Assembly (NCBI GenBank): GCA_963514005.1
Contig: OY740782.1
Coordinates: 7,750,001 to 7,814,000, forward strand
DNA: 64,000 bases
Reading direction: 5' to 3'
DNA from: Raja brachyura
Taxonomy: Eukaryota
Below are positions 25,099-50,457 of this stretch, in pieces. Within the stretch, counting starts at the first letter, position 1. The number at the start of each line of letters is the position of its first letter. The notes below the pieces were generated by a model. The model saw nothing but the letters and a program-made list of their open reading frames with translations, searched no databases and had not been told where the DNA came from. Both the position numbers and the translations under genes were made by a program.

Positions 25099-25232
25099 AA
25101 AAGTATAAAGATATAAAGACAATAATGTCTGATATTTTTTTTAGCATATCGAATATATCCACCAGTGGGAAGTGTAGAAAAGCAGAATGTTATTAAATAG
25201 AGATGTTTTAAAATGGAGAGATTACAGAATGT

Positions 25233-25429
25233 AGACACAAAGCTGGAGTAACTCAGTGGGTCAGGCAGCATCTCTGAAGAAAAGGAATAGGCGACTGAGT
25301 CTGAAGAAAGGTCTCGACCTGAAACGCCACCTATTCCTTTTCTCCAGAGATGCTGCCTAACCCGTTAAGTCACTCCAGTTTTTTGTGTCTATCTTCCGTT
25401 AAAAACCAGCTCCTTCAGTTCCTTCCTAC
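25233..25429. mobile_element. Penelope-derived hairpin element with hammerhead core and 16 bp TSD
   Basis: Inverted arms agacacaaagctggagtaactcag... / ...cactccagttttttgtgtct. Core ctgaaga-a-aggtctcgacct-gaaac at 25301-25325. Flanks agagattacagaatgt / agatattacagaatgt. Confidence 0.8.
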
Positions 25430-25459
25430 AGATATTACAGAATGTTGTGGGACAGGGAT

Positions 25460-26290
25460 CGGAGTATGGCCATGCACTTTGGTAGAAAAAATAAACGTGT
25501 AGGCTACTTTCTAAATGGAGATAAAATTCAGGAATCGGAGGCAAGGAGACTTGGGAGCGCTGGTGAAGGATTCCCAAAAGGTTAATTTGTAAGTTGATTT
25601 GGTATTAAGGAAGGCAAAGGCAATGTTACAACTCATTGTGAGAGGACTAGAATATTAAAGTAAGGATGTAATGCTGAGGCTTTATAAGGCGTTGGGCAGG
25701 CCGCATTTGGAATATTGTGAACCGTTTTGCTCCCCTTATCTGAGGAAGAATGTGCTGATGCTTGAGAGTGTCCAGAGGTGGTTTACGAGAATGATCCCAG
25801 GAATGATTGGCAGAATGATCCCAGGAATGATGGGGTTAATGTGTGAGGAGCGTTTTATGGCTCTGGGCCTGTACTCGCAGATGTTTAGAAGGATGGGGGG
25901 GGGGTAGAGGAGACTCATTGCAACCCACTGTATAATGATAGGCCTGGATAGAGTAGATATTTTTAGTTTAATTTAGAGATACAGCCATAGTTTAGAGATG
26001 TGGAAAGGATGTTTCCGGTAATAGAGCCTAGAACCAGAGGGCACAGCCTCCAAATAAAAGGCCATATCTTTAATCAGATGGTGTTGGATGTATGGAATTT
26101 ATTGCTACAGATGGCTATGGTGGCTGACATTAGGTATTTCTAAAGCAGAGATTGATAGGTTCTTGATTAGTAAGGGTGTCCGAGGTTATTGGGAGATGGT
26201 AGGAGAATGTGGAGAGGGAAAAATAGATCAGCTATGATTGAATGGCAGAGCATACTCGAGGCGCTGAATGGACTAATTCTGCTCCTGTGT
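25460..26290 (+). mobile_element. CR1 LINE 3' portion, older copy
   Basis: LRLYKALGRPHLEYC...VQRWFTRMIPG followed by the 3' UTR. Confidence 0.85.
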
Positions 26291-26913
26291 CTTATGGAGT
26301 GCATAAAGCATGCAAGTACATAATAGGAAGACCAATGCCTTTAGTTGCAAAGTGGTCTCGCTGTAACTGACTAAAACTGGTGTGACCATTACTAGAGTAT
26401 GGTTCCGTTTTGGCCGCCCTATTTAGGGAGGGATGAACCTGTATTGGAGATAGTTCACTAGAATTCCTAGATTGAAGGAGCAGTCTTGGGAGTGGATTGG
26501 CCCTTTCTGAATTTATAAGAATTATCATGGTCCTGTTGACATCTTATCCAGACAGATCAACTGTGATTAAACTTTTGCCACCTTCCCTTTACCACCACCT
26601 TCTTGGGTCATTCATTCGTATGTAACATAGCACCCTATAGCAGACACATCCTTCCTATACTTCTCTCACTGTTTACTGACTTCTGCGCTTGCTGGCAGGA
26701 TGGTTGGGTTTTTTTTTCTCCCAAAACAAACACTGAAGAAAGTTTACTTTAAATCCAGCCATCATAAATAAACAGCTGATGTGAGGTGTTTTTTTTTTTG
26801 GTTAACATGTCACATTACCCGGTTAATCCCAGGACTGAGTAAATGGGTGACTTAAGTTCAAGTGACTATTCGTTTTAATGATCGTGTTTCTCTTCAACCA
26901 TTACTGCCTGCAG

Positions 26914-27050
26914 ATGGTTTCCGTAAAGTTGTAAACATTGAACAAGGTGGACTTGTGAAACCAGAAAAGGACGATACGGAGTTTCAACATGTGTACTTCA
27001 TCCGGGGACAGGAACACTTGCTGGAAAATATCAAGAGAAAGGTGACAAAT
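26914..27050 (+). CDS. hsf1: HSF1 coding exon (exon 3), end of DNA-binding domain
   Basis: cctgcag| ... |gtaagt. (Y)[45 protein letters not shown]; 137 bp, phase-compatible with the previous exon. Confidence 0.96.
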
Positions 27051-28154
27051 GTAAGTGCAGGTTAAGTGTTGTTATGTTTTACGCCTTCTTGTTGTGAAAT
27101 ATTGGGTTTCAACTTTGCCTGTTGCGGCTTGCCCTTGAGAGGCACAGAAATTCACTATAATTTTTTCCATACCAAGTCCTGCTGCTCGCTGCACCAGCCA
27201 CTATAATTGCAGAGTTTTGCGGCTTGTAAATTGCTATGCTCGGCTATTGGTAGGTTTCCGGAGAGATGCCCCTGATCTGCAGTCTCCTGCACAATTGTCA
27301 GTTGGTGGAAGTTATTTTTGGAATGGATTAAAATTCAAGCTATGGTGCCTGAGAGACATTGAGGAATGCTGTTGCTGTGTTTACACTCCTGGGTCTGTGC
27401 TCCGTTCTCTCGATGCTTGTTGACTGGCTTTGCTGGGAAGCAGACAGATCATAGAGTCATAGATACACAGCATGGAAACAGGCCTGTGTCCAACATGTCG
27501 ACCAACATGTCCCATCTCTACTAGTCCCACCTGCCTGCATTTTGCCCATATCCCTCAGCCACATACTTAGCTTTTAAGTAATTAGACAAATGAAACCCCA
27601 TAGCTTTACAGAAGTTCCACCTTTCTTGGGGTTGTTAGGGCAATCCAACAATATTTTTAACGTTCCAAGCAGACTGGCTGCTATGCATCTCTAAATCTGA
27701 ACTTCACTGTGTGTAGCCAAATCACACCAGGTCATGATTCCTTTGCTGAGGGCAAATTCTGACAACATTTGGGCTTGTGTTTTAATTTCTTGAATGGGAA
27801 TGGGTTTCACTTACCGTGGCTGTTGTAATAATTGATTGCATCTTGAGTCTCTTTAACTCCAGAGAACCTTTCCGCCGGGTGAATTTGCATATCTTTGGTA
27901 GAATCTCACACTTAATTATTGATCTCTCAAGTTTTTTCCTGGGCGAAAACATGCATTTATTTAGAGGAAGGACCCATGTCTGAGCAGGTTCTTGGGAACC
28001 AATAAACTGGAAAACTTTGGGTTTGGTGCAGGGAGAGAATGAAAAGAATCTTCCTAGGAATCCTGGTTTAGAGCAAATTGTTACATGACTTTGTCTCATT
28101 GTTGATATTAGTTTTTCTACAGCCCAAGCTTATTATGTGAAAGAATAACATTGG

Positions 28155-28669
28155 TGGGCATGTCCCACTTAGGCATTTTTTTTCAGGCGACTGCCCGGTG
28201 ACTGTCAAGTTGTTAGCAGTCGCCTGAAAAACCAGTGTACGGCAAGTCCTTTAAAAGAGGGGGAAGAAGGAGTGGAGGCAACTTTTAAGAAGCCGGAGAT
28301 ACACGGCTGAGAAGCTCGGTGGACATTTGCATGACCGATCAGTTATCCTTGCTTCTGGAAACTACTGCTTACGTTTTTTTCCCCAATGATCCAATGAAAT
28401 TCGCCGATCAGCACCGGCTACAACCTACGAGTACCTTCGACCTCCTGGTAACGCACTAGGACTTCTTGGCGACCCACCTACGGCATGAGAATTCTCGCTA
28501 CTCTCCATGGCAGCTTCATCCTAGTGTTGAAAAATTCGCGGCACCCATAATGAGGCTAGTTCCCACAATGCGGGGACTCCTCACGACAATGAAGGCGACT
28601 CCCCGGCAACCACTCGCGAACATGTGGCGACTGCATAGTCTAAAAAGTCGCCTAAGTGGGACAGGCCCA
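28155..28669. mobile_element. MITE with tgggc(c/a)tgtcccacttaggc TIRs (PIF/Harbinger-like)
   Basis: tgggcatgtcccacttaggc at 28155 and gcctaagtgggacaggccca ending at 28669. Right flank is tta; the left TSD is not clean. Confidence 0.75.
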
Positions 28670-28729
28670 TTAGAGTTTTCAGTCTGATAATTCTCTGAAG
28701 AGAATGCACTGGGTTTTTTTTTTAAACAC

Positions 28730-29335
28730 TGAGCAGGGAGGTTCTACTTCAGTTGTACAGGGTCTTGGTGAGACCACACCTGGAGTATTGCGTACAGTTC
28801 TGGTCTCCAAATCTGAGGAAGGACATTATTGCCATAGAGGAAGTGCAGAGAAGGTTCACCAGACTGATTCCTGGGATGTCAGGACTGTCTAATGAAGAAA
28901 GACTGGATAGACTCGGTTTATACTCTCTAGAATTTAGGAGATTGAGAGGGGATCTTATAGAAACTTACAAAATTCTTAAGGGGTTGGACAGGCTAGATGC
29001 AGGAAGATTGTTCCCGATGTTGGGGAGGTCCAGGACAAGGGGTCACAGCTTAAGGATAAGGGGAAAATCCTTTAGGACCGAGATGAGAAGGACTTTTTTC
29101 ACAGAGAGTGGTGGGTCTCTGGAACTCTCTGCCACAGAGGGTAGTTGAGGCCAGTTCATTGGCTATATTTAAGAGGAAGTTAGATGTGGCCCTTGTGGCT
29201 AAGGGGATCAGAGGGTATGGAGAGAAGGCAGGTACGGGATACTGAGTTGGATGATCAGCCATGATCATATTGAATGGCGGTGCAGGCTCGAAGGGCCGAA
29301 TGGCCTACTCCTGCACCTATTTTCTATGTTTCTAC
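28730..29335 (+). mobile_element. CR1 LINE 3' portion
   Basis: ORF 28753-29148 ([13 protein letters not shown]...RGDLIETYK); 3' UTR ends in a tttctatgtttcta tail. Confidence 0.92.
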
Positions 29336-29442
29336 GATTTCATCGCCTCTGGTCAATACTGACCACTCCAGGCCAGGGGCTTTACAATGTGTCCAGTTGC
29401 CCTTCAACATGGGTGATGGTATTTCTCCCCCTCTTTTGTTAC

Positions 29443-29603
29443 ATGGAAACATAGAAAATAGGTGCAGGAGGAGGCCATTCGGCCCTTTGAGCCAGCACCG
29501 CCATTCATTGTGATCATGGCAGATTGTTCCCAATCAATAACCCGTGCCTGCCTTCTCCCCATATCCCTTGATTCCACTAGCCCCCTAGAGCTCTATCTAA
29601 CTC
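29443..29603 (-). mobile_element. CR1 3' end, tail-to-tail with the previous copy
   Basis: gaaacatagaaaataggtgcaggaggaggccattcggccc. Confidence 0.85.
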
Positions 29604-29710
29604 AAATAATGTTTGAATAATGTGGAAAGTGACCGTGTGAGTGTTCCTTGGATTGGTTTCATGGGTTGGCAGTGTTTTCTATTAATGGAACATTGTTTTA
29701 AAATTTGCAG

Positions 29711-29835
29711 ATATCAACAGTCAAGCCTGAAGAGCTGAAAGTCCGTTCAGACGATGTAGGTAAAATTCTAAGTGATGTCCAAATCATGAAAGGGAAGCAG
29801 GAAAATGTGGACAGCAAGCTGATAAACATGAAGCA
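29711..29835 (+). CDS. hsf1: HSF1 coding exon (exon 4), linker and start of HR-A
   Basis: ttgcag| ... |gtaagt. [41 protein letters not shown](H); 125 bp. Confidence 0.93.
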
Positions 29836-29989
29836 GTAAGTAGCTAAACATTGAAGTATGGAGGGTTCTTGGGGTACAAGTGGATAGCTCCCTGGACGTC
29901 ACAACACAAGTAGATCAGGTGGTTACATGCCTTTATCAGTGGGTGGCTGATGTGAAATAATGATTCGGCTGTATGAAATTATTTTAAGG

Positions 29990-30480
29990 CTGGCGATCCA
30001 GTATTGTACAAGAAGTCCAGGTATGACTTCCTGAAGGCCACCGAATGCATGGTAAGACAACTTGGAGCTTAGCTAAAGTCACAGATGGATGCCTCTCAAC
30101 TATCACCACCTGCAAGGCTAAACCGGGTAACCGGAAACGGCCATCACTTCCGGATGAGCTCAATACCTTTCATGCACACTTTGAAATGGGGTTCAATGAT
30201 GCATCTACACGAGCCCCCATAGCCCACGGTCACTTTGAGTTTACAGGATCGTTAGGGACTAATATCAGTCTTGAGTTTGACCTCAAAGCATCCTTTAAGA
30301 GGGTAAATCTACACAAATCATTGGGCCCATACAGTATACCTGGCCAAGTGCTAAAGATCTTTGTGGACCAGTTTGATGGAATAGTCAGCGCCTCACTTCT
30401 GATGACTGAGGTTCCCACCTACATCAAAGGGGCATTTATCTTGTCGGTGCCCCAAATTGACATCCCTTCATGACTACCAG
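29990..30480 (+). mobile_element. Degenerate Rex1-like ORF fragment
   Basis: SLPDELNTFHAHFE...SFKRVN.HK..GP..IPG.VLK; a similar remnant lies at ~20400-20720. Confidence 0.55.
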
Positions 30481-30484
30481 CTGG

Positions 30485-31105
30485 TATAGACAATAGCCAA
30501 CAGACAGTTGATGCAGGAGTAGGCCATTCGGACCTTCAAGCCACACCGCCGTTCAATGTGATCATGGCTGATCATCCACAATCAGTACCCCGTTCCTGCC
30601 TTCTCCCCACATCCCCTGATTCCACTATCTTCAAGAGCCCTATCTAGCTCTCTCTTGAAAGTATCCAGAGAACCGGCCTCCACCGTCCTCTGAGGCAGAG
30701 AATTCCATAGACTCGCAACTCGTGTGTGAAAAAGTGTTTCCTCGTGTCCGTTCTAAATGGCTTACTCCTTATTCTTAAACTGTGGCCCCTGGTTCTGAAC
30801 TCCCCCAACATCGGGAACATGTTTCCTGCCTCTAGCGTGTCCAAACCCTTAATAATCTTATATGTTTCAATAAGATCCCCTCTCATCCTTCTAAACTCCA
30901 GTGTGTACAAGCCCAGCTGCTCCATTCTCTCAGCATATGACAGTCCCGCCATCCCGGGAATTAACCTTGTAAACCTACGCTGCACTCCCTCAATAGCAAG
31001 AATGTCCTTCCTCAAATTTGGAGACGAAAACTGCACATAATACACCAGGTGTTCTCACTAAGGCCCTGTACAACCACAGAACTGTACTCAACTCCCCTTG
31101 TTATG
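30485..31105 (-). mobile_element. CR1 LINE 3' portion
   Basis: ORF 30644-31045 plus 3' UTR with an atagacaatag tail. Confidence 0.9.
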
Positions 31106-31114
31106 AACTAGCAT

Positions 31115-31908
31115 CCACCCCATAATGGAAAAGGGAGAGCCAGTGGATGTGGTGTATTTGGACTTTCAAAAAGCCTTTGACAAGGTCCCATACAAGATTG
31201 GTGTGCAAAACTAGAGCACATGGTATTGGGGGTAGGGTATTGGCATGGATAGAGAACTGGTTGGCAGACAGGAAACAAAAAGTTGAAATTAACAGGTCCT
31301 TTTCAGAATGGTAGGCCGTGACCAGTTGTTTACAATATATATTCATGATTTAGACGAGAAGGAATTATATGTAACATCTCTAAGTTTGCGGATGCCACAA
31401 AGCTGGGTGGCAGTGTGAGCTGCGATGAGAATGCCATGAGGCTGCAGGGTGACCTGAACATGTTGGGCGAGTGGACAGGTGCATGGCAGATGCAGTAATG
31501 TAGATAAATGTGAGGTTATCCACTTTGGTGGCAAGAACAGGAAAGCAGATTATCATCTGAATGTTGTCAGATTAGGAGAAGGGGAGGTACAACAAGACCT
31601 GGATGCCCTTGTACATCAGTCACTGAAATGAAGCACGCAGGTACAGCAGGCAGTGAAGAAAACTAATGGTATGTTGGCCTTCATTGTGAAAGGATTTGAG
31701 TTTAGGAGCCAAGAGGTCCTACTGCAGTTGTACTAGGCCCTGGTGAGATTGCACCTGGAGTATTGTGTGCAATTTTGGTCTCCTAATTTGAGGAAGGACA
31801 TTATTGCTATTGAGGGAGTGCAGCGTAGGTTCACCAGGTTAATTCCCGGGATAGCGGGACTGACACATGATGGAAGAATGCGTCAACTGGGCTTGTATTT
31901 GCTGGAAT
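31115..31908 (+). mobile_element. CR1 RT fragment, back-to-back with the previous copy
   Basis: [37 protein letters not shown]. Confidence 0.88.
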
Positions 31909-33199
31909 CTAACAGCTTTTTCACCCCGGTAATTTCCTCTTCCCTTTCCCATCGGACAGAAGATCCAAAAACTTGAAAGCACGTACCTCCAGATTCAGGA
32001 ACAGCTTCTTCCCATTTCTTATCCGACTATTGAATGGTCCTCTCATTAGCAAGAGTGTCACTGCGATCTTCCAACCTATCTCACTGCACTTTTTTTAGAC
32101 ACTTTCACTGTAACTGTAATGCTACAATGCTGTAACACTTAATAGATGGCAGTCATCTCCATGAAGTTTTAATTTGAGGTTTAAAATAAGCATCTTTGAC
32201 CACCAATGATTGATGGTGCACTCTGCTGCATTAAACTATTATGGCTTGAAATACACCAGTGAGGTATCAACTTGTTTTGAGTCGGTAGAAAAGCTTATAA
32301 TGTGAGATGTATGTTGGAATTATTTTAAAACCAGGATTCAGCACCATTCCCCTGCTGCCCATGAATTGAGGGAACACATACTCCTCGTTGCTCTGGGTCT
32401 CAGTCACGTATCATAAACAGTACAGGACCAGAACGGTTGTATCAGCCCATGACGTCAGGCCGAGATACACTGACCTTCTCTGCTTGCGTGTGATGCATAT
32501 CGTTCCATTCCCTGCAAACCTATGTGTCCGTCTAAAACTATCGTATCTGCTTCCACCGCTACTCCTGGCTGTGCATTCCAGGCACTCTCCACGCTCTGTC
32601 TTCATAAATAAAAAAAAATCTTGCTCTACGCTCCTCTAAACTTTTCCCATTGCCTTAAAGCTGTGTCCTCTAATCATTGACTTTTCCACCCTCTGGGGGG
32701 AAAAAGGTTCTAACTCCTCCCTGCCCATGCCTCTCATAATTTGAATACACTTTTATCAGGTCTCCCCTCCACCTCCGAAGCTCTATAGAAAACAATCCAA
32801 GTTTGTCCATCCGCATCAGGGTGTCAGGGGTTATGGGGAGAAGGCAGGAGAATGGGGTTCGGAGGGAGAAGTAAATCAACTATGATTGAACGACAGAGTA
32901 GACTTGATGGAATCAAGAGAAGCAGCACAGCAGCAATAAGTGTAGAAACCCTCGTAGTGCTCACACTATCAAGTGCACTCACTTCTTTCACTTGACAACA
33001 TACAACATGCTGTCCTTGGGTAAAATCAGAAACTTACAACTATTGTTCCCTGTTGCAAAATCCAACTGCAAAGATGTTTGGGAAGGTACGTGTTGCATTT
33101 GTAACACAACGTTAAAAAGCTATTTACCAAATACTGATTCTGATTTCTTTTTGCATTATTGTGCATTTTTGGCAATAAAGCACAACAAATGCTTGAGCG

Positions 33200-34090: not shown

Positions 34091-34661
34091 GTTAGTCTGG
34101 CATTACGGGGATATTGGCTGTGCCAGACCAGTGGAGTTTGTGGACTACTGGATGCTATTCTAATTAATGCCAATAAAATAGACGTTACATAGTAACATTT
34201 CCAGTGAACACAGTTAGTTTCAAACGAGTGCACAAAACAAGGACTCGGTGAGTTTAAACATGAATCGAGTGAAGGTGGTGCAAGAACCAGGGCACTGGTG
34301 AACAAAAGGGTTTGTCTGAATCTGCACCTGCCAGGCCAGATGACAACCATTCCAGCTCAATGATCGAACAGTGGATTATTGGTTAGACTGTAAATCAGCG
34401 TTAAGTGTCGTATATATCACATGTGGGATGTTCATTTTCACAATAAGTAGTTATGCCGTGGAGAGTTACAACTGCCATGTGAAACATGAAGCCCCTGCCT
34501 ATTACTCCCCCCCCCCCCCCCCCCCCAACAGCTCATAGCACAGCACCCGCTAAGCAGGGTGGATCAAAGTGTAAGCGAGAAATAATGAAGGGGCACTCTT
34601 TAGTCAGGGACTCAAGAAAGGTGTTACTGTGGCCGAGATGCAGATGCTGGTTTAAACCAAA

Positions 34662-35067
34662 TGTTTAAGAAGGAACTGCAGATGCTGGAAAATTTGAAGG
34701 TAGACAAAAATGCTGGAGAAACTCAGCCGGTGAGGCAGCATCTATGGAGTGTAGGAAACAGGCAACATTTTGGGTCGAAATCCTTCTTCAGACTGAAGAA
34801 ACGTTGACTATTTCCTTCCCTCCATAGATGCTGCCTCACCCACTGAGTTTCTCCAGCATTTTGGTGTACCTGGTTCAAACCAAAATTAGACACAAAAAAC
34901 TGGAGTAACTCAGCGGGTCAGGCAACATCTCTGGAGAAACGGAATAGGTGACGGTTCAGGTTGAGACCCTTCTTCAGAAGAAAGGTCTCGACCCAAAATG
35001 TTACCTATTCCTTTTCTCCAGAGATGCTGTCTGACCCTCTGAGTTACTCCAGCTTTTTGTGTCTATA
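34662..35067. mobile_element. Two nested Penelope-derived hairpin elements inside an old CR1 ORF1 fragment
   Basis: Palindromic insert 34662-34869 is flanked by ctggtttaaaccaaa (34647-34661) and ctggttcaaaccaaa (34870-34884). A second palindrome spans 34888-35065. CR1 ORF1 esterase sequence (...IYIGTND) resumes at ~35070. Confidence 0.8.
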
Positions 35068-36472
35068 TCTTCCAGGATGATGGTGCCAACATCCAGAATG
35101 TGTCGGAGTTGCCACAGGATATTCTGAAACTGGATGGTGAGCAGTCAGAGGTCATGATCTATATTGGTACTAATGATACAGGCAGGAAGGGGGATGAGGT
35201 CCTGAGCCAACTTTGGTAAAAAGTTACAAACATGACCTCAATTATGTAATCTTGAGATAGTTATATAAATATTAGGTGAATAAAATCATGAAGGGCATCA
35301 ATAATGTGAATGGTCATGGTGTTTTTCACATGGTAGAGTAGTGGAGTCTAAAACTAGAGGACATAGATTTAAAGTGAGGAGGAAGGATTTAAAAGGGATC
35401 TGAGAGGCGACTCTTTTTCACATGGAGGCTGGTGGGTAAGTGGAAAAACCTGCCAGTGGGAGTGGCAGAGGTGGGTACCATTAAAACTTTTTTTTTAAAC
35501 TTTGGATGGATACATGTAATGGTACAATTGAAAGAAATATGGGCAGATTAATGAGGGTAACTTGGGTAGGCAAAAGGGTCAGCATACATGTTGGGCCGAA
35601 GGTCCTGTTTCCATGCTGTTTTACTCTGTGACACTAACCCAGAGTAACATAGGACTGTAGTGGAGTACGTTCGACCTCTGCTTAGACCCCAAAAATTGCC
35701 CCTCATATTCTTATTCAATCTGAGGATTGGAAACAATTTACAACTCAGCAAAGCAGAACCAGAACCTGTTTTTGCTTTTATTTTTGATTTCCAGCATCTG
35801 CAGGTCAGGCAGCATCGCAGGAGAATGTGGATAGGTGATGTTTTGGGTTTGGGACCCTTCTTCAGACTTGTTATTTGTGGAGAGAAGGAGTAAACAGGGA
35901 GCATGTATGTTAGAGTTTAGAAGATTGAAAGGAGAACCCATCAAAACCTCTAAAAGGATGGATGCAGGGTGTTGTTTTCCCTGACTTGGGACTCTTGGGG
36001 ACCAGAGGGGCACAGTTTGAGAATATAGTGGAGGCCATTTATTACTGAGCTGAGGTTATATTTCCTCATTCAGAAGGCAGTTAACTTGTGGAATTCTCTA
36101 CCATGGCTGACGGGGTTGCTCAGAGTTCACTCAAAACAAGGAACAAACGGGTATCCATTGCAGAGTAGGTTTTGGCACAAGTGCTGCTAGGTCGGATTTG
36201 TAGAAATGGGTACTTGTTGATCGACCTTGATATGTGAGCCCAAGAAGCTGTTTGTGCTGTATGACTATGATACATCCTTGATTAGTGCTGGAAAATGGGG
36301 CCAAAGAAGATCAGCTGTGATATTGATGGATGTTAGAGCAGGCTCGGGGTGTCCTGTTCAAATGTTCATCAATATCATGACTGATCTTCTACCTCTGTGT
36401 TAATTGACAGCACCACACTTGCTGTGGTTTAGAACATCGAACAGTACAGTAGCAAGAGATGTCTGTAGCATT

Positions 36473-36562
36473 CTGAAGAAGGGTCTCGACTTGAAACGTC
36501 ACCCGTTCCTTCTCTCCAGAGGTGCAGCCTGTCCCGCTGAGTTACTCCAACATTTTGTGTCT
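36473..36562 (+). ncRNA. Putative minimal type I hammerhead ribozyme core in a Penelope-terminus fragment
   Basis: CUGAAGA-A-GGGUC-UC-GACUU-GAAAC-GUC at 36473-36500: conserved boxes, helix II with G-U pairs, short palindromic helix III (ACGU) and a GUC cleavage triplet. Helix I is uncertain. Confidence 0.5.
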
Positions 36563-37175
36563 ACTATGGAACAGCACAGGACAGTCCACAGTGTTTTTGG
36601 CGAACATGACACCGTTAATCTCTGCCTGCATAGATCTATATCCCTCTATATTCCATGCATAATAAAACATGCTCATGAATTCAAGGAAATATAGCAGTAA
36701 TGAGTATAGTCATCCTTCCATTGCTACGAATGTTACTGATCAGTATCATTAGGTCATTTTAATTAAAATGAAGGAGCCTTCTATTGCTCAGTTTAATCCG
36801 AGCTGCAAAGCTAATTCAGGGAGCTGATTTAAGATGATGTAATCCCGGTTATTCATGAGCAAAGAACCCGGAGACACAAGGAACTGCAGATGCTAGAATG
36901 TTGAGTGAGACACAAAGTGCTGGTGTAATTCAACAGGTTAGGCAGCAGCTTCAGACTGAAGAAGGGTCCCGACCGAAAACGCCGCCTATCCCTTCCATAG
37001 TGCTGCCTGACCCACAAAGCAACTCCAGCTAAGATTTAGTGCTGCTTGACACCATTCTGCATGCATTCTTGCCATAGGATTGTGAATCCAATCACACGTG
37101 CTCTTTGATCATGCAGTGCCATCTGTTTAGTGATGATCTTGCATTATTAATGTTAATGTTTCTTGCTATTTGCAG

Positions 37176-39059: not shown

Positions 39060-39225
39060 TTTCCTCATCAAATCCCTACACATTTATGGGGTGGGGAGGA
39101 AACCGGAGCATCCGGGGGGAATCCAGGTGGTCTCTGAGAACGTGCAAGCTCCACTCGGACAGCACCCGAGGTCCGGATCAAACCCGGGTCTGTCGCTCTG
39201 TGAGGCAGCAACACCATCACTGAGC
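39060..39225 (-). mobile_element. tRNA-derived SINE (HE1/V-SINE-like) fragment
   Basis: The reverse strand shows a tRNA-like head with a B-box-like gggtttgatcc, followed by a V-domain-like gtggagcttgcacgttctc...tgctccggtttcctccc. Confidence 0.65.
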
Positions 39226-39614
39226 TGCTCTATGATTCTATCTTTGATGCGCTTTGATCCAGTCGCAGCTGCACTAGAATTGCTTTATAACTCAATCTCC
39301 AAGCACCACCTATTCCGTTCTGTGTCGCTACCATCAGGCCAAGAAGTTAACCCCGATTCAATGAGTTCAGCAAAGACTGCTGGCCACAGCAACTAATATT
39401 GACCCACTTCGACGCCAACGTTGGAACACAACAACCTGCATGCTCTTGACATAAATAGACCCAAGTGATCGCACAATCAATGGACCAATGAATTAAAAAC
39501 TACAATATCGCTGCCATATGAAAGCATGCACAATACTGGATCATTCTGCAAAATGACAGCTCCAAGAACATTCACATTTTGAATAATCTTCACCCAAACA
39601 GGACTGCAGGAGAT

Positions 39615-39845
39615 GTAGAAACATTAAAAATAAGTGCAGGAGGAGGCCATTTGGCCCTTCGAGCCAGCATCGCCATTCATTGTGATCATGGCTGATCATC
39701 CACAATCAGTACCCCGTTCCTGCCTTCTCCCATATCCCTTGATTCTGCTAACCCCTAGAGCTCTGTCCAACGCTCTTTTAAATTCATCCAGTGAATTGGC
39801 CTCTACTGCCTTCTGTAGCAGATAATTCCACAAATTCACAACTCG
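39615..39845 (-). mobile_element. CR1 3' end
   Basis: agaaacattaaaaataagtgcaggaggaggccatt... through ...cacaaattcacaact. Confidence 0.85.
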
Positions 39846-41209
39846 AGGACAGCTTTGAGGCAAATGAGACGGCAGGAGCTGTTCTTATAGATCTGACTGC
39901 TGCCTATGGCACCGGGGTCTAACTGCAAAGCTACTTTGGGTGCTGCCAGACAGGCGTATGGCACGCTACATCATGGAGCTGATATCAAACCGCAGCTTTG
40001 TGCTTAGACCAGTGATGGACAGCAGAGTAGGCTACGTAGACTGAAGTATGGCGTCCCACAGAGATCCGTCTTGGCTCTGCTGCTTTTCAATGTGTACATC
40101 CACGACCTCGCAGAGACCATCGCTGGAAAATATGGGTCTGCTGATGATCTAGCCATCCTGATGGGACACAAAGAGTGGAAGACAATCGAAAGCTTCTTGA
40201 GTCAAGGCATGGGGACGTTGGCAGTATACCTACAACAGTGGCGTCTAAAGCTGAGCGAAGGCAAAACAGTGTCAACAGCATTTCATCTAAACAACAAGGA
40301 AGCTAAGCGAGAGCTAGCTGTCTTCGTTAGCAATAGGCGCTTGTTGGACTTCCAACAAACACCTACATACCTCGGCGTAAAGCTGGACAAGTCGCTTACA
40401 TTTCGTCAAGCCTGGATGGTCTCCACGACAAGGTCATGGCACGTAGCGGCCTCATCCGACGCATGGCAGGAACAAGTTGAGGAGCCAGTCCATCAACTCT
40501 TCGCACCTCTGCCTTGTGTATGCCCCCGAATGGAGTAGAAGTAGACATACTAGCCTGGTAGACATGAGCCTGAACAGCACCTTGTGAACCATCACTGGGT
40601 GCCTTCAACCTACTCTAGTCGAGCAGCTCCCTATACTTGCAGGCTTTCTGCAAGCAGGCAAGCAGCAACTCTGGCACTATCTCGTCGTGCCATGGACCCA
40701 GATCATCTCCTCCTTCAGACTATCAGCAGAGAGCAGAGGCCACCCCGACTGAAGTTCCGTCACCCCTTTGCTCCACATGGAAAACAACTCCAAGCATCCA
40801 TCCAGCCAACTGAGACAAAAGCACACTGGATAGCCACCAAGTGGTCACAGGAGTGGAAGGCGACCTCATCTCCATTGCACAGTTACATCTCTTCACCAGA
40901 TAAAAGCTGTCCACGGTCTGACCTCCCTAGAGGAGCATGGGTGAAGCTCAACAGACTTGGTACTGGAGTTGGGGGTTTCAATGCCAGCATGTGGAGATGG
41001 GGGCTCCGCCAGAGCCCAGCCTTTGAATGCGGAGCAAAACAAAACAGACAGCCAACCATGTCATCTCTGGGTGCCCGCTCTACCACCCACCATATGGAGG
41101 TCAGGGCCATGGCAGTCATTGACGCCAACAGAGACAACAACATGGCTGCTCAACAACAGGCTTGAGATCTAACCATTCCTTTGGTTTATCTTTCATTTGC
41201 AAGAAGAAG
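39846..41209 (+). mobile_element. Vingi/Ingi-like non-LTR retrotransposon, 5'-truncated
   Basis: LIDLTAAY, LLFNVYIHDL, ADDLAI, KTVSTAFHLNN, PTYLGVKLD, WVKLNRL.TG, a CCHC remnant (ECG..QT..HV...CP), a very short 3' UTR and an (aag)3 tail. Clade assignment is from memory of motifs. Confidence 0.65.
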
Positions 41210-41249
41210 GTGACTCTCTGGGTGAGTTTTTATTTTTCTCGTCTCAGTT

Positions 41250-43592
41250 TTAAATGGCCTCCCCTTTATTCTTAGACTGTGGCCCCTGGTTCTGGACCTC
41301 CATCATTGGGAACATTTTTCCTGCATCTAGCTTGTCCAGTCCTTTTTTAATTTTATACGTTTCTATAAGATCTCCTCTCATCCTTCTAAATTCTAGTGAA
41401 TACAAGCCCGGTCTTTCCAATCTTTCCTCATTTGACTGTCCCGCCATCCCGCGGATTAACTTTGTGAACCTACGCTGCACTGCCTCAATAGCAAGAATGT
41501 CCTTCCTCAAATTAGGAGACCAAAATTGCACACAATACTCCAGGTGTGGTCTCACCTGGGTCCTGTACAACTGCAGAAGGACCTCTTTACTCCTATACTC
41601 AAATCCTCTCGTTATGAAGGCCAGCAAGCCACTTTTCATCAAAATAACCTGTTTATCTTTAGATTATCAGTGAAACTAATAAAGAGAATATATTTTTAAT
41701 GTAACACCTGATATTCTAAATAACAGCAATTAAACGTGAAGCCTTAAGTCACAACAGATAGTCAAAGTAAGAATCATTTGCAGAGCTGTCTTCATAGGAC
41801 AACCAAGGTGGATATCTGGTTCTTCTTTGTTGCTTCTTTATGGTCTTTGTGGGAGAGATAGATCAGCCATGATTGAATGGCGGAGTAGACTTGATGGGCC
41901 GAATGGCCTAATTCTACTCCTATTACTTGTGACCTTATCACATGCCATCAGCTTTCTTCACTGCCTGCTGTACCTGCATGTTTACTTTCAGTGATTGGTG
42001 TACAAGGACATCCAGGTCTCGTTGCACTTCCCTTTTTCCTAATCTGACACCATTGAGATGATAATCTTGCTCCTTGTTCTTGCTGCCAAAGTGGATAACC
42101 TCACATTTATCTACATTATACTGCATCTTCCATGCATCTGCCCACGCACTCAACCTGTCCAAGTCACCCTGCAACCTCCTAGCATCCTCTTCGCAGTTCA
42201 CACTGCCACCCAGCTATGTGTCATCCGCAAATTTGCTAGTATTACTTTTAATCCCATCATTTAAATCATTAATATATATTATAAATAGTTGTGGCCCCAG
42301 CACCGAGCACTCCACTCGCCACTGCCTGCCATTCTGACCTGGACCCATTTATTCCTGCTCTTTGTTTCCTGTCTGCCAACCAATTCTCTATCCTTGTCAA
42401 TACCCTACCCCCAATACCATGTGCTCTAAGTTTGCCCACTAATCTCCTGTGTGGGACCATATCAAAGGCTTTCTGAGTCCAGATACAGTACATCCACTGG
42501 CTCTCCTTCATCCTTTTTACTTGTCACATCCTCAAACAATTCCAGGAGAGTAGTCAAGCAGAATTTCCCCTTCATAAATCCATGCTGATTTGGACCAATC
42601 CTTTTACTGCTATCCATTATTTAATAATTGACTCCAGCATCTTCCCCACCACCGGTCAGGCTAACTGGTCTATAATTCCCCGTTTTCTCTCTCGCTCCTT
42701 TCTTGAAAAGTGGGATCACATTAGCTACCCTCAAATCCACAGGAACTGATCCTGAATCTATAGACCAATGCATCAACGATTTCTAGAGCCACCTCCTTGA
42801 GTACCCTGGGATGCAGACCAACAGGCCCTGGGGATTTATCAACCTTCAGTCCCATCAGTCTACCCAATACTGTTTCTCTCCTAATGCAAATTTATTTCAG
42901 TTCCCCTGTCTCCCTAGATCCTCTGTCCTCTCGGACATCCGGGAGATTGTTTGTGACTTCCTTAGTGAAGACAGAACCAAAGTACCTGTTTAACTCTTCT
43001 GCCATTTCCTTGTTCCCCATAGTCACCTGTTTCTGCCTTTAAGGGACCCACATTTGTCTTTACTAATCTTTTTCTCTTAACATACCTAAAGAAGGTTTTA
43101 CTATCCTTCTTTATATTCTTAGCCACCTTACCCTCATACTTTTCTTTTCACCCCGTATTGCCCTTTTTGTTCTCGTCGAAGGTTTCCCAATCTCTGGCTT
43201 CCGGCTACTCTTTGCTGTGCTATACACCTTTTCTTTTAGTTTTATTCCATCCCTAACTCCCCTTGTCAGCCACGGTTGCCTCTTTGTTTCCCAATTACTC
43301 TTACTCCCCGTAGAATCTTTCTTCAACTTTGCAATGAAATTATCTTTCATTTTCTGGATTATGCCCAGAAGTTCCTGCCATTGCTGTTCCACCATCATTC
43401 CTGCTAGGATCCTTTCCCAGTCGACCTTGGCCAGCTCCTCTCAAGCCTTCATAGACTCATTTGTTCATCCGCAACACTGACACTTCTGATTAAACCTTCT
43501 CCATAATTTATATTATGGTCACTACCTCCTAGCGGTTCCTTTACCTTGAGTTCCCTTATTAAATCTGCTTCATTAGACAACACTAAATCCAG
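41250..43592 (-). mobile_element. CR1 ORF2 fragment interrupted by a ~300 bp insert
   Basis: 41250-41630 and 41938-43592 are contiguous in CR1 coordinates (gaaggcca...catgcca junction). The insert ends in a + strand CR1 3' UTR at ~41850-41935. Confidence 0.85.
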
Positions 43593-44209
43593 AGCTTAAT
43601 AGTTTCAGTCAGACCTTTTTCACACAGAGGGTGGCTGCAAGAGGAATGGTTGAGGCGGGTACAATAACAACATTTAAAAGGTATTTGGACAGGATATGGA
43701 TAGGAAAAGGTTAGAGGGATATGGGCTAGGTGCAGTCAAATGAGGCTAGCTTAAATGGGACGAGTTTGGCCAAAGGGCCTGTTTGCGTACTGTATCTATA
43801 ACAACATGAAGCTAAATGCCAAATTTCTTCTATGGTCCACCTCATCAGAGGCCATTCTTCAATCATGTGACAATAAGCTATGGCTTACTGCCTGCGAAGG
43901 CCATGCCAGCAAAAGCAAACACCAACGGGCCAGACAATGCCTTATCTTACAATGCCTTACACTGGAGCCAAGCTGCTCCAGTGTAAGTAAACCATGTATA
44001 TATGGGAACGGTTTAGAGGGATATGGGGCAAACACAGGCAAATGGGACTAGGAGGATCTTGGTTGGCACAGATAAATTAGGCCGTTTCTATCCTCTATGA
44101 CTTTGTTGTTCCACCTGCCCAACAAAGTGGAAATTTCCAGTCCACAAAGAGCTAATCTGGATAATTCTGTCTTACTAGTCTACCATTATTCATTAAAAAA
44201 AACAAATTA

Positions 44210-45320
44210 CCGTATTTCCCGGCAATGAATACGCACCTGCGTCGAAGGCACACCCCCATTTTGAGTTGCTACATTTTGAAAAAAGACTGGCGAGACATAG
44301 AATTTCTCATTCAAAATGTTCAAAAAAAATAAAAATAAATAAAGAAAGTAACAATTCAATTTGCCCAAGGCTTCCAGATCTCCTCCATTTTGAATCACTG
44401 AATGGGTGGGGGGGGTGGAAGGTGACGACAGGTGGAGAGATGGTGGGAAAAACGGGAGCACATCGCGACCAGTTGAATCAGCTGTGATCGTATTGAATGA
44501 CAATAAAAGTTCAAGGGACCAATTGGGGGGTAAGAGTTCCTTTCACAGCATGTGGGGAGTCTATTTAGGGGGAAGAGTTCCTTTCACAGCATGTGGGCAG
44601 GAGCGTTGAGAAAGAGGGGGTCGGGGATCATGCCAGCAACTCAGTCACCGCTGCCGCCACGCTCCGGGCGCGGAGCTACCGCATTGTGGCCGGGGAGGGA
44701 AGTAGCTCGGGTGGCTGCGAGCGGCCGCCGGGACCAGACAGCGGAACCTCAGCGCTTTCTGCGGGCCCGTTCACCTCTGGCAGTGCTCTCCGTCTGAACA
44801 CCTCTCTCCTGCCACGCTCATGTCAGCCGAATCCTGCAAATCCCTAAATTCCGACTGCCGTCGGGATCAGGACATGGCCTCACTTGCTGTGCTGGGTGAC
44901 ACTGCATGGCATTAACTGCCCGGTCCGTGTCTTTCCAGAGCAAAATCGTAGAGCGGAGCAGGTCAGCGGACGATGGATAACAGGACAGCGGGCGGTGGAA
45001 CTTACTCCTGTGTCTCCGAATAACCTCAATTGGTCCCTTGATCGCACTGACGGGAGTAAGCTCCACCGACTGCTGTCCTGTTATCCATCGCCCGCCGACC
45101 CGCTCTTTGCTCTTGAGCTGATCCCCTCACTGTTCGATCCCGGCGGCCGCTCACAGCCACCCGAGCTATTTCCCTCCCCGGCCACAATGCAGTGGCAGCG
45201 GTGAGTGAGTGAGTTGCTGGCATGATCCCCGACCCCCTCCTTCTCAACACACCTGCCCATGCTGACCCGGGCCAGACTCCCCACTCGCTGTGAAAGGAAC
45301 TCTACTTCCTTTTCCCCCCT
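44210..45320. mobile_element. GC-rich palindromic non-autonomous element with a Tc2/pogo-like left end
   Basis: Starts TA|ccgtatttcccggc. Inverted arms ~44575-44720 vs ~45135-45303 and ~44950-45010 vs ~45050-45105. No right TIR found. Confidence 0.5.
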
Positions 45321-48145
45321 ATCCCCCCCCCCCCCCCCCCCCCGCCAGACCCTGGACAGCTTTTATCTGGTGAAGAGATGTAGCTGTGTAATGGAGATGA
45401 GGTTGCATTAAATCTTTCCCCTCTCACTTTAAACCTGTGTCCTCTAGTTCTTGATTCCCCAGCCCTGGGGAAAAGCGTGTGTGCATTCACCTCAGTTGAA
45501 TTGGTGAAGTGGGAGTGACTGCCTTTCACATGATGGCTGTAGTTAGTTGACTCACAATGGTATTTGTAGAACTCTGATCAAGCAAGAGTAACGCTTTGAG
45601 CAAAGGATGATTGTGTGTTTTGTTGTGGTTTGTAGTGGCAGGCAGGAGGATGCCCTTATATTTATCCCATGCATCGTTTTTTTCATCTATTTTCAATTCC
45701 ATTCACAAGTCATGGATAATGCCACAGTTGGTGCCCATTTATTCTGAGACCTGGGAATATTTTGGGTTTGAGATGAGAGGTAACAAGTAACAAAAGCCGG
45801 GTACTGACCATCCCATCACCAATGTTCATCCAACTCCCCGTGCCAATCTATTCCCAATATCCCTGTTATCATTCGTAAAGCTGCCAATGATGAGAATCCT
45901 AACAGAACCAATCCTGGTATAAATTAACGGTGAGGCTGAGCATGCTGCGGCAAATGATTGAGATTTTCAACTCTCAAAACATGTTGGCAATGTGATGGGA
46001 GAACTCTCCATTTCCTTCCAACAACACTCCGAGGTCCTTTATTGCCATCTCACCCACGATCCTCAGCATCCATTAAGCACAATGACGGAGTTATTTGCAA
46101 GGTAAAGTCAACAACATCTTATAAACCTGTGACGTCGCCCACCGTTGAGGCCAAAGGGAAGGGAGCAAAGAAACGCTGCCTGCAGGTTATCCTTCAAGTG
46201 ACTCGCAGGTCCACATCTTAAACAGATAATGGAACGCAATACATGCTTATAGTCATAACATGTGGTCGTCTCATTGGTACATGAAGGCTTAGTGAGAATC
46301 TTGACTTAATTACAATTACATTTTGTAGTTGGACAAGAAAATTAGTGGGACATTGAGTGTGGGACTTGGAGTTTATATTGGCCATTCCTCTTTGCCGTAC
46401 TGATCGAGCCCTTAATCTCATGAGCTACTAGAAATGCATGGCCAAGATCTGTCAATGTCCTTCAGGAAGCTGATGAAAGACTGGTGGGAGAGCCTTGTCT
46501 TGTCCACCTCTGGCACGTGGCTAGTGACAGTAATTAAGTTTGTCCCTATTTTTGACTGTGGATGTCCAGGTAAGTAAGATGGAGGAACATCAGTGTATTA
46601 CTCGATGGGCCGAATGGCCTCCTCCTGCACCTGTTTTCCATGTTACAGCATGTACTGCTTTCCATGAACAGACACCGTTGTTTGATAATATCTGGTTTAG
46701 AACAGTCAGCAGTTTCCAACCTGCAATAGGTAGGTTGGAGATGACTCTGGGATTGCTGCATATCAGGCTGGCTAATGTGGAAAATTGGATCAATCAAGGG
46801 GTTGAGAGGCGAGTTATTTCCTGTTGGTGGGGAATTTGCCAGACAGATGTCTAAGTGGAGGTTGATGTGCTTGTTGGACATTGCATAGAGGTTGTTACTG
46901 TTTAGAATATGGGATGCTACTTCTGAAAGGTGGATAATAGATTGGCTGTTTCATGTTTAAAACCAAATTGCTGACATTCACGAGAATATTGATCTCATGA
47001 TTAAGGTGCCTGAAGTCATGGGACCGGTACCTTGCTCTGGACGATCTGCTGGGTAATTTCATTGGCACTATTACCCTTGGGATTAAACTTTGCAACCGTG
47101 ATAATGGAGGAGGCGATCAATTTAAGTTTGTTTGAATTGCATGGTGTTCAGTAATAGAAACAAGTGAACCTTCTGCAACCTTCCTTTCCACTCATCTGAA
47201 TGAGTGCCGCAGCAACGACACTGAAGCTTGTCACGACCCAGGACAAAGCAACCTGCTTAATTGGCACCGCATCCTAAACACTGACTCCCACCATTGTTCA
47301 CTAACTAGCTAAAGTGGGCATCACCTACAAAATGCAGTGGAACCATTTTCCACAGCTTCAGCACCCTCACTGAAATCCACAAAGTGGATCCATAGCAGCA
47401 GCAGGTGAATGACCTGTAAGTCCCTTCCAAGTCGCAAGCCATTCTGACTTCAAAATACGTCACAGCCACTTCACGGTTACGGGGTCTATTTACAGATATT
47501 CTCCCTGTATCGACATGGAGGGCGCATCATGCCATAGGGAGGGAGGTGTCTCAGGCAATTTTGCCTTGCAAGTAGGGTGAAGATGGAGGAAAGCAACCCG
47601 TGCATTTTTATGTAGGGAATGGGATTGGGAAAAGGGCTCTGTTTGTTGGGACTGAGTGGATATGATGGTGAGTTTGCCACCGATAAACCATAACCAGGCT
47701 AGATTATCGTCACAGTTGTCAGTCACTTGAGACATCTTTGTTGAACAGTTGTAAACTTTTGCACTGATTACTTTCACTCAACATGAATGGCTAGATGTAA
47801 GTGGGCCGGTCATTAGGCTGTGGCTGGGCAAGTTGAGAATGAATGGGTGTGGAGTAGCATTGGGTGATTTTCATTTTCATTTCAGGTAGAGTGGGTGTTG
47901 GATAGCTGTAAATCAGTCAAACCTCATCCATGCGTCGGGCCCACCAGATGACCACGTGTGCTGATCTGCCATTGAAGGAGAGGTGGGATTGGGGCTGAGG
48001 GAGGAGATGGGTCTGTGTGAGCATTAGGATGCTTTTCAGTCTGGGACCCAGAAGGGGTTTATTTGATGGCACAGTGGCTATGAATTGGATTGGTGCTTGT
48101 TTTTGCACAGAATCGTGACTTTTTGTTTTCTTTTTCCTTTTGCAG

Positions 48146-48207
48146 CTAATTCAGTTTCTCATTTCACTCGTGCAGTCCAACAGAGTCATCGGTGTGAAGA
48201 GGAAAAT
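48146..48207 (+). CDS. hsf1: HSF1 coding exon (exon 6), end of HR-B and basic KRK motif
   Basis: Long polypyrimidine tract, tgcag| ... |gtgagt. LIQFLISLVQSNRVIGVKRK(M); 62 bp. Confidence 0.95.
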
Positions 48208-48765
48208 GTGAGTCTGAGCTCATTGTTGTGACAGGAACAAAATTAATGTCTTGTGTCCATTGTGTGATCTGCAGCCTAATGGTCAGTGGAAAGCAGTATT
48301 GATGCATTAACGTGCTTGCCAGAACATAACAAATCACTCTTTTTCAGAAAGAAAAATATTATTTTCTCCACTTAGATCCCCGCCTGGTTCTTGCAGATGA
48401 AACTTTCCTATTTCAAAACGCTTCCTAATTACGCAACGTCTATTAAATTGATGCCTCTGCGAGCCAGCCAGCCTATTTTCTGTAGCCCTGGGGTCAGCAT
48501 TCTTTCCACAGAGGTTTGTCTCTAGACTCTGACCTCCAGTGATAAATAAATGCTGCACAGTTTGGGGATTTAAGCTCGCCGGGTGTTTTGTTTTGTGCTG
48601 TTGGTTACTTCCTTGGCAACATGTTTGCTGGGAGCAGCCAATGAGCTTACATCCCAGAGCATTTCACGCGCCTCTCTCTGCGTGTGCTACTGCATGCCCA
48701 CGTGCAGGATTCCCCCTGAGATCTCGCAGTGGTTGAAGGAACAGAGCAGCTGCAGTCAGCGAGGG

Positions 48766-48768
<3 letters not shown>

Positions 48769-48842
<74 letters not shown>
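48769..48842. repeat. (CA)37 microsatellite
   Basis: Perfect dinucleotide run read directly. Confidence 0.98.
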
Positions 48843-48845
<3 letters not shown>

Positions 48846-48970
48846 GCAGCTGCTTCTCTCACTGCCCACTTAGTAACGGGCCCATGTCAATTGCAAAAGC
48901 AATATCGAGAGAAGCTAGGTTAATGAAGTTAGAATGCAGACTTCAATGATTCAATGCTACTTTATTCTCA

Positions 48971-49173
48971 AAATGTTGAAACAAGGAAATGCAGATGCTT
49001 TTTTTTTTTAAATGACGCAAAGTGCTGGAGTAACTCAGCCGGCCAGGCAGCATATCTGGAGAACCTGGAAAGGTGACACTTTGGGTTTGAAGAAGAGTCC
49101 CAACACGAAACGCCACCCATGTATGTTCTCCAGAGATGCAACCTGACACACAGGGTTATTCCAGCACTTTGCA
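48971..49173. mobile_element. Penelope-derived hairpin element with ~13 bp TSD
   Basis: Inverted arms; degenerate core tgaagaagagtcccaacacgaaacg. Flanks tactttattctca (48958-48970) and tactttattatca (49174-49186). Confidence 0.7.
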
Positions 49174-49851
49174 TACTTTATTATCACATGTATCTAAGTG
49201 CCTAAATGTTTTTGTGTGAGGTTCTGTGACAGTCCTGCAATACATTAGGCACAATCATACTAAGTGTCAGAGTGTAAGACACACTGAGTCGGTACACAAG
49301 AGTCGCCACGTTTTTTTTTTAAGTCCAAAAGTTTTTGTTTTAAAGTCCAAAGGTTTTTTTTTTTAAATGTTGGAGTCTTAACTTAGCCATAAGGGCCCGT
49401 TCTCCTGGCTGTGGCACAGGGTTGGAGTTGCAGGGTTCAATGGGGTTGCAGTGGTGCGATGTGTCTGTTCTGCTGCTGTGTGCCACTGCAGGTCCCGTCC
49501 ATTCGATCAGCCATGATCACAATGAATGGCAGTGCTGGCTCGAAGGGCCGAATTGCCTCCTCCTGCACCTGTTTTCTATGTTTCATTCTATGTGCTTGAC
49601 TTCTTGGATCAGTGCCTGATCTAATTGTATTAAAACAGTACAGCACACAAACAGGCCCTGTCTGTGTTAACTATGATACTAATTTAAACTAATCCCATCT
49701 GTCTGCACATCTCCATCGTGTGCCTGTCTAAATGTTTCTTAAATGTTGCTATCAAATCTGCTCTACCACCTGCCCAACAGATAGATTGAGGCTTTTGGGC
49801 TGATTAACTTTCCCTATTTAATCAACTGGGTTTCATCAACCTATGCTACAG

Positions 49852-49969
49852 CAGGTAGACAAAATGCTGGAGAAACTCAGCGGGTGCGGCAGCATCTATG
49901 GAGCGAAGGAAATAGGCAACGTTTTGGGCCGGAACCCTTCTTCAGACTGATGGGGGGGGGGGGGGACAA
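49852..49969 (-). mobile_element. Single Penelope terminus with hammerhead remnant and 10 bp TSD
   Basis: Minus strand reads ctgaaga-a-gggttccggccc-aaaacgtt. Perfect flanks tatgctacag at 49842-49851 and 49970-49979. Confidence 0.78.
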
Positions 49970-50457
49970 TATGCTACAGTGATTTTGCTGTCTTTTCCAT
50001 GTTCAGTCACAACCTTTTTTCTGGGGGGGGGGGAAATGTCAAAAGCCTGGAGGGCATAGCTTTAAGGTGAGAGGGGAAAAGTTTAAAGGAGAAGCAGGGG
50101 CATATTTTTACACAGAGGGTGATGGGTGCCTGGAACGTGCCAACAGGGGTAGTGTGGAGACAGATATAATACTTGCATTTAAGAGGCGTTTAGATGGGCA
50201 CATGTATATGGAGGGACATGGGTCATGTTCGGCACAGACATTGTAGGCTAAAGGGTCAGTTTCTGTGCTGTACTGTTCTATGTTCAAAGAAAGCCAATGC
50301 ATAGAATAATGTTTACAATGTTATTATTGTTATGGTTAAATCAGCAACAACATTATAATTTAGTTTGAGCTGGATGTCACAATTAATGTTTTCCTACATG
50401 CAAGTGGCATGCTTGCATCTCGAATATTAATTTCTGTATTTCTTTGCTCTCTTCCAG

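Follow-up and report, generated by a model that had tools for sequence, protein, structure and literature searches.

Penelope terminal-repeat hairpins among the heat-shock-factor exons of a skate: probable one-off truncated insertions

What are the short inserts, made of Penelope terminal repeat and bracketed by target-site duplications (TSDs), that lie among the exons of a skate gene: a mobile non-autonomous family processed by its own ribozyme, or stereotyped abortive Penelope insertions? We analyzed a 64,000-nt stretch of Raja brachyura (GCA_963514005.1, contig OY740782.1, positions 7,750,001 to 7,814,000, forward strand), here called the window, in which an earlier note had named four such inserts (25233, 34662, 48971 and 49852) and left both answers standing. 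Our analysis indicates that the hairpins and single arms of the window are probably one-off, maximally 5′-truncated insertions of a Neptune-type Penelope-like element (PLE), derived from several successive subfamilies.

A profile built from nine arms of the window returned 35 hits in the window, 27 of them with E below 1e-5. These arms make up eight head-to-head hairpins (25233, 34662, 34885, 36872, 48971, 51514, 57554 and 58419), single arms, and the ends of coding copies. On the outer side, arms end at one of two points; these differ by about 35 nt, the tail. In the following list, core denotes the hammerhead ribozyme core and pLTR the pseudo-long terminal repeat.

25233..25429, unstranded: head-to-head pLTR hairpin; short antisense arm, then tailed sense arm; core from 25301, triplet changed
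25217..25232, + strand: left TSD of the 25233 hairpin, 16 bp; partner 25430-25445, 1 mismatch
34662..34869, unstranded: hairpin whose arms belong to the coding-type subfamily: a tailed antisense arm and, beyond an apex that is a perfect palindrome (center 34792), a short sense arm without helix II
34647..34661, + strand: left TSD of the 34662 hairpin, 15 bp; partner 34870-34884, 1 mismatch; what was duplicated is part of a Penelope tail
34637..35072, unstranded: older host hairpin (34885) with arms at 34885-35072 that meet near 34977 and a tail remnant at 34637-34661; flush TSD not found
36872..37030, unstranded: decayed hairpin; palindromic apex as in 34662, center 36955; the antisense arm is tailed and has an internal deletion
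48971..49173, unstranded: old hairpin; tailed antisense and short sense arm, junction near 49086
48958-48970 and 49174-49186: TSD of the 48971 hairpin, 13 bp, 1 mismatch
49852..49969, − strand: single tailless pLTR arm, ending in a poly-C tract upstream of the core
49842-49851 and 49970-49979: TSD of the 49852 arm, 10 bp, perfect
51524..51692, unstranded: hairpin (51514) with its junction near 51612; the antisense arm is short, the sense arm tailed
57554..57973, unstranded: long hairpin; arms reach upstream of the core; short antisense, tailed sense arm
58419..58640, unstranded: hairpin; tailed antisense arm, partial sense repeat, short sense arm
20259..20387, + strand: single arm with a tail; its start lies within the first core box
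36470..36564, + strand: single tailless arm; its minimal hammerhead core (36473-36500), with a 1-bp helix I, is the one intact core of the window

All four direct duplications reported in the earlier note were confirmed, flush with their inserts, and their lengths vary from 10 to 16 bp. In a loose search 0.3-0.6% of 3000 random placements scored as well as these four, and a repeat of at least 10 bp flush within 3 nt was found at 1 of 3000 random placements. Flush TSDs occur in 4 of the 12 inserts tested, which are the four named ones only and include 3 of the 8 hairpins; no flush duplication turned up at 12 further spans searched for a TSD. The TSDs are 60-77% A+T, as compared to 56% for the window. 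The target of the 34662 insertion was the tail of an older hairpin (34637-35072), a tail of which 34637-34661 remains, and the TSD of 34662 is therefore Penelope sequence. The three named hairpins fold far better than shuffled sequences (z of −10.1 for 25233, −13.3 for 34662 and −6.3 for 48971), and hairpin RNA gives duplexes of −46 to −133 kcal/mol. The view that the named inserts consist of terminal repeat alone holds in that they match the 3′ end of a coding copy and three of them are hairpins, but 49852-49969 is a single antisense arm that folds no better than shuffles (z 0.33).

Two coding copies lie in the window:

11143..13300, + strand: coding Penelope-like copy, 5′-truncated and frameshifted; part of the reverse transcriptase (RT), CX4CX2C linker, GIY-YIG endonuclease, tailed 3′ pLTR
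11148-11295: inverted endonuclease-region piece at the 5′ end of the 11143 copy
15039..16110, unstranded: composite insertion; tailed antisense arm to the 5′ edge of the core (15168), jump to post-tail sequence, antisense part-arm (to 15320), then direct RT fragment

Compared with the coding copy's 3′ end, the arms match at 74-95%. Both coding copies are 5′-truncated and have no direct upstream pLTR. The GIY-YIG Pfam match has an E of 0.0045, below the curated cut-off. Thirteen related proteins were found among 378 candidates, the best from skates, rays and sharks, and relatives of the endonuclease region come from Rhinoraja (73%), Hypanus, Rhincodon, Mobula and Chiloscyllium. The CX4CX2C linker precedes the GIY-YIG domain in the open reading frame (ORF) at 12512-13018. 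A CX2-5CxxC linker at this place is given as a mark of Neptune and Nematis (PMC8557442), and vertebrate PLEs are reported as Neptune or Poseidon in a survey covering one chondrichthyan (10.64898/2026.07.22.740005). The linker motif, which is shared with Nematis, rather than a tree, suggests that the skate element is Neptune-type.

Exactly one arm is tailed in each of the eight hairpins, seven by score and one by inspection. Among 25 scored arms, the tailed arm of each of these seven scores 12-19 and the other arm 4-6, with 10 as the 99th percentile of random sequence; in the eighth hairpin (34637-35072) the tail is split by the nested 34662 insert. If arms picked their ends independently at even odds, the chance of this pattern would be 0.004. 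The tail matches the 30-40 bp tail that published accounts describe at one end only (PMC3846280, PMC8557442). The reading frame in the 15039 composite continues about 70 nt beyond the tail, and the same post-tail run occurs in a gene model of Leucoraja erinacea (little skate), with 41 of 47 residues identical. Since the element continues past the tail in both, the two outer ends are internal positions of the element. This downstream sequence (15170-15239), captured by a template jump, has an open frame with a methionine and is a candidate start of the Penelope ORF.

The inner ends are equally confined. With junctions read by eye, seven of the eight hairpins have one or both arms ending inside a 9-nt palindrome, TCAG-T-CTGA. 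The palindrome overlaps the first catalytic box at the 5′ edge of the core, and the first arm of the 15039 composite also stops there before jumping template. Under two nulls, both of them uniform ranges that we chose, the probability of this clustering is 8e-4 to 1e-6. The ends are stereotyped on both the inner and the outer side. All eight hairpins are head-to-head; the apex is perfect in two, and most others have microhomology of 1-3 nt. Junctions differ between elements, except for the apex common to 34662 and 36872, which belong to different subfamilies, and the two closest elements, 25233 and 34885, have unlike junctions.

The earlier note placed the turn-around at the ribozyme. It does occur at the 5′ edge of the core boxes. 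The cut itself would fall elsewhere: the cleavage triplet is some 25-30 nt further downstream than the palindrome, and ribozyme processing therefore leaves the turn-around unexplained. We rejected a turn-around at the triplet, as at most 1 of the 16 hairpin arms ends at the cut site (the left arm of 25233, ambiguous through 3-nt microhomology). About 99 nt rich in pyrimidines, poly-C included, separate the end of the coding copy's ORF from its hammerhead core (13084-13182); they begin with GT and end with AG. This stretch is a candidate retained small intron like that of Drosophila virilis Penelope, a lead and not a result; the D. virilis intron is described as ending at the 5′ end of helix I (PMC4209133), and the PLE start site as lying in the pLTR (PMC8557442).

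Each hairpin was built from a single subfamily. Over the 28 hairpin pairs, 84 informative sites group arms by element, 33 group like arms of different elements and 17 group them crosswise; the 84 by-element sites carry this conclusion. We preferred these counts to a tree of 26 arms (66 columns), in which coding-type arms split from the rest, because its inner branches are poorly supported. Internal deletions are not mirrored between the two arms of a hairpin. Arm-to-arm identity is 60-88%, and the inserts are therefore old, of mixed age and not recently mobile. Of the two arm subtypes proposed in the earlier note, the 'gagaaactc' type does include both coding-associated termini, but at least four variants can be told apart by eye. 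The short copies of the coding type (49852, the left arm of 34662, and 20257) are 89-94% identical to the coding terminus, and a separate lineage was not seen. At alignment columns 71-72, one CpG-prone position, an A is present in 4 of 8 short arms and 0 of 8 tailed arms; chance, strand-biased deamination and a master-copy trace are all candidate causes.

Hammerhead boxes adjoin the hairpin apex, as the earlier note had observed, but the core is intact in none of the four inserts it named. The cleavage triplet is changed to GCC in 25233 and 48971, the latter also lacking C3; G12 is changed in one arm of 34662, the other arm having lost helix II, and G12 is likewise changed in 49852. A minimal-hammerhead descriptor scan of both strands of the 64 kb found one locus (36473-36500), outside the four named inserts, and hits in 6 of 30 shuffled windows as a control. 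The majority sequence of 13 arms has both catalytic boxes, an extra nucleotide before helix II and a palindrome in the position of helix III, and this is the layout of a minimal PLE hammerhead as judged from the sequence. Helix II pairs in 88.5% of cells over the 13 arms. Helix I consists of 2 bp, a mismatch (in 12 of 13 arms) and 2 partly kept bp, with 55% of cells paired in an alignment where the upstream sequence of several rows belongs to the opposite arm or the flank. Covariation in the hammerhead helices was not above shuffles (215/500), and an Rfam scan with E up to 5 gave three matches, none a hammerhead; the MIR2118 match among them was rejected, as it is below its cut-off and reflects a generic hairpin. 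When the three named hairpins are folded, the sequence that follows the cut site is base-paired to the opposite arm. Ribozyme mutants in the anole system are reported to have inserted normally (PMC11167929). Given the decayed cores, the ends off the cut site and these mutants, the hammerhead in these copies is a decaying passenger, whatever its role in the parent.

Every feature of a truncated inverted-pLTR Penelope insertion that we tested was found, and one tail per hairpin, inner ends at the palindrome and one subfamily per hairpin support the reading of stereotyped abortive insertions. A mechanism may be sketched by analogy with the anole Poseidon enzyme, whose RT-endonuclease is reported to nick and extend both strands of AT-rich DNA, pLTR sequence included, to begin reverse transcription at either of two neighboring positions within the RNA, between which the tail lies, and to require RNA downstream of these start sites and not ribozyme cleavage; the D. 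virilis endonuclease is reported to need the tail for recognition (PMC11167929). The landing of 34662 in an older hairpin's tail would fit both the nicking of AT-rich or pLTR DNA and tail recognition. In the skate, complementary DNA (cDNA) from either start site would run only 95-130 nt and then stop at the 5′ edge of the core; the RNA 5′ end, an intron boundary and the poly-C tract are candidate causes of the stop. Two cDNAs, one per nicked strand, may then pair through the palindrome or some other microhomology; alternatively, a single cDNA may fold back on the palindrome and be copied. We favor the first of these routes by a little. The unmirrored internal deletions, and a 25233 junction that cannot be derived from a perfect apex by simple deletion, lean slightly towards two cDNAs; the strict one-tail rule leans towards fold-back or endonuclease resolution. 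Arkhipova and colleagues interpret such junction palindromes as self-priming (PMC3846280). The product would have no sequence downstream of the start site and its ribozyme region would be buried in a long duplex, and it should therefore be dead on arrival.

Several points weigh against one-off truncated insertion. Independent priming on two strands does not by itself account for exactly one tailed arm. The Poseidon biochemistry is carried over to Neptune by analogy. The window, a single one of 64 kb, holds 8 hairpins, 3 with a flush TSD, and it contains no coding partner for the 'gagtaactc' arms, although this absence means little where there are only two coding copies. Long palindromes are unstable and may lose their centers after insertion, and differing junctions are thus no proof of independent origin. 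The excess of 33 like-arm over 17 crosswise sites agrees weakly with a fixed master: it takes rank 4 among 128 label permutations (p 0.03, in one of several tests), and two adjacent columns at a CpG-prone motif contribute 12 of the 33 sites.

That excess is also among the points in favor of the rival that survives best, a non-autonomous fold-back retroelement in which a master hairpin with one tailed and one short arm is transcribed in host introns and copied as a unit by the Neptune RT-endonuclease. The one-tail layout, fixed in 8 of 8 hairpins, the perfect apex common to 34662 and 36872, and the high density of hairpins and arms (they cover about 3.0 kb, 4.7% of the window, when limits are set by hand) would all follow from unit copying; pLTR sequence is reported to suffice for mobilization in trans in a rotifer (PMC3846280), and non-autonomous PLEs are described in Chlamydomonas (PMC8557442). 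We nevertheless consider it unlikely. The hairpins fall into several subfamilies with both arms of one type, as the 84 by-element sites show, the closest pair has unlike junctions, and single arms with a TSD occur too. Such copies end at the start sites, without the downstream RNA that the anole enzyme is reported to need (PMC11167929), and their RNA folds into the long duplexes described above.

Alternatively, the hairpins may be solo products of insertions with the order inverted pLTR, direct pLTR, ORF, pLTR, which lost the ORF through recombination between direct pLTRs and left a hairpin within the original TSD. The parent structure, with its TSD and one-sided tail, is published (PMC3846280), and a stereotyped junction and an intact TSD would be predicted. 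The parent structure is found in neither coding copy of the window, as both are truncated upstream, the repeats are only about 130 bp, and single arms with a flush TSD are explained more simply as direct truncations. We judge this route improbable. Least of all do we credit a retrozyme, with units cut out by the hammerhead, circularized and reverse transcribed, which is largely refuted for these copies even though the 13-arm majority sequence and its well-paired helix II resemble PLE minimal hammerheads (PMC4209133) and animal retrozymes are reported to derive from pLTRs (10.64898/2026.07.22.740005): tandem units, a complete ribozyme per unit and ends at the cut site are all missing, the copies are inverted and not head-to-tail, helix I is poor, covariation and Rfam gave nothing, and, within this one window, the differing junctions, the site counts and the 89-94% identity to the coding terminus likewise oppose the retrozyme or SINE-like (short interspersed nuclear element) family proposed from it. 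A tandem retrozyme array was not found in either the tandem-repeat scan, where 0 of 9 rows involve the Penelope repeat, or the arm map of the window; the only repeat in this direction is the partial sense one inside 58419.

The closest published structures are those of Pen2a and Pen2 of Adineta vaga, described with an inverted pLTR, a junction palindrome, a 31-bp tail at one end and a TSD of 8-10 bp (PMC3846280), and the general PLE scheme of Craig et al. 2021 (PMC8557442), which gives the same architecture around ORFs. The skate hairpins share with them the head-to-head pLTRs, the junction palindrome, a one-end tail of 30-40 bp and a TSD of variable length, whereas they are empty between the arms and their TSDs are 10-16 bp. 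The inverted-pLTR cases in these accounts are insertions bearing ORFs or captured DNA, together with solo pLTRs. The Poseidon element of Anolis carolinensis (PAc) as described resembles the skate inserts in that its two discrete outer ends differ by the length of a tail, its targets are AT-rich and include pLTR sequence, and its hammerhead lies upstream of the start sites. It is unlike in that the skate coding copy has the Neptune/Nematis CX2-5CxxC linker.

The metazoan PLE hammerheads of Cervera and De la Pena 2014 (PMC4209133) have both boxes, the extra nucleotide before helix II and no helix III loop, as in the skate, and they too are mostly dispersed truncated copies. Pairs of minimal hammerheads on opposite strands, 100-700 bp apart, were already noted there in Schistosoma. 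The skate cores differ in a helix II of 4-5 bp and a weak helix I, nearer to the D. virilis variant with its 2-bp helix I, and they are decayed. Animal retrozymes without LTRs resemble the skate inserts in being non-coding, related to pLTRs, a few hundred bases long and flanked by a TSD of more than 4 bp. They are described as head-to-tail repeats with a complete hammerhead per unit (canonical in the 2020 paper), whereas in the skate the arms occur in inverted pairs or singly and the cores are broken. We found no literature description of ORF-less Penelope hairpins in cartilaginous fish in a search that lay outside Repbase and Dfam, where a prior description is possible.

The host gene encodes a vertebrate heat shock transcription factor (HSF), with exons on the + strand between 22200 and 55000. 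Translation places HSF exons near 22.2, 26.9, 53.7 and 54.7 kb, and Pfam finds heat-shock-factor domains in 3 frames (150 of 169 open frames outside large repeats were searched). All four named inserts lie between HSF exons and are therefore intronic, and the hairpins in HSF introns may, on the transcribed strand, be candidate double-stranded RNA substrates.

Other repeats surround these inserts. Two inverted repeats of about 800 bp (1798-2636 and 10292-10999, 73-85% alike) flank minus-strand ORFs at 4050-4919 and 6213-6890, with a long interspersed nuclear element (LINE) fragment interrupting, and the element they bound is likely a DNA transposon. Its 225-amino-acid ORF resembles unnamed eukaryotic clusters (score 0.94), and a transposase RNase H domain is a weak lead only (score 0.76). 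Both inverted repeats contain fragments of the Penelope terminal repeat (2060-2235 and 10707-10748), so a piece of pLTR may be carried inside this other transposon; the left fragment contains a small head-to-head remnant that we left out of the count of eight hairpins. LINE copies with RT remnants and a short common 3′ tail are at 4826-5917, 28731-31911, 39605-43593, 52820-53379, 56528-56877 and 60320-62622, and are probably of the shark HER1/HE1 LINE-SINE group. Also present are a GA-rich internal repeat region (22800-24844) and a (CA)37 microsatellite (48769-48842). An exact 25-nt search of a collection of bacterial and archaeal genomes for stray fish DNA gave 0 matches.

The most likely reading is thus one of ordinary repeat debris, although unusually clean debris. 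On this reading, a hairpin free of ORFs preserves the two start sites of the Penelope RT, its stopping point at the 5′ edge of the core and the manner in which two ends are joined. The origin of inverted and tailed PLE structures is described as unresolved (PMC3846280, PMC8557442), and the one-tail rule together with the stop point are useful data for the question of how PLE ends form. It is doubtful that skates carry an ORF-less fold-back family that is re-copied as a unit without ribozyme cleavage and seeds introns with long double-stranded RNA; if true, this would be a new kind of non-autonomous retroelement, the retrotransposon counterpart of miniature inverted-repeat transposable elements and distinct from tandem retrozymes. 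At the density of this one window, by extrapolation, the skate genome should hold very many such hairpins, enough genome-wide to weigh two-strand priming against fold-back by counting.

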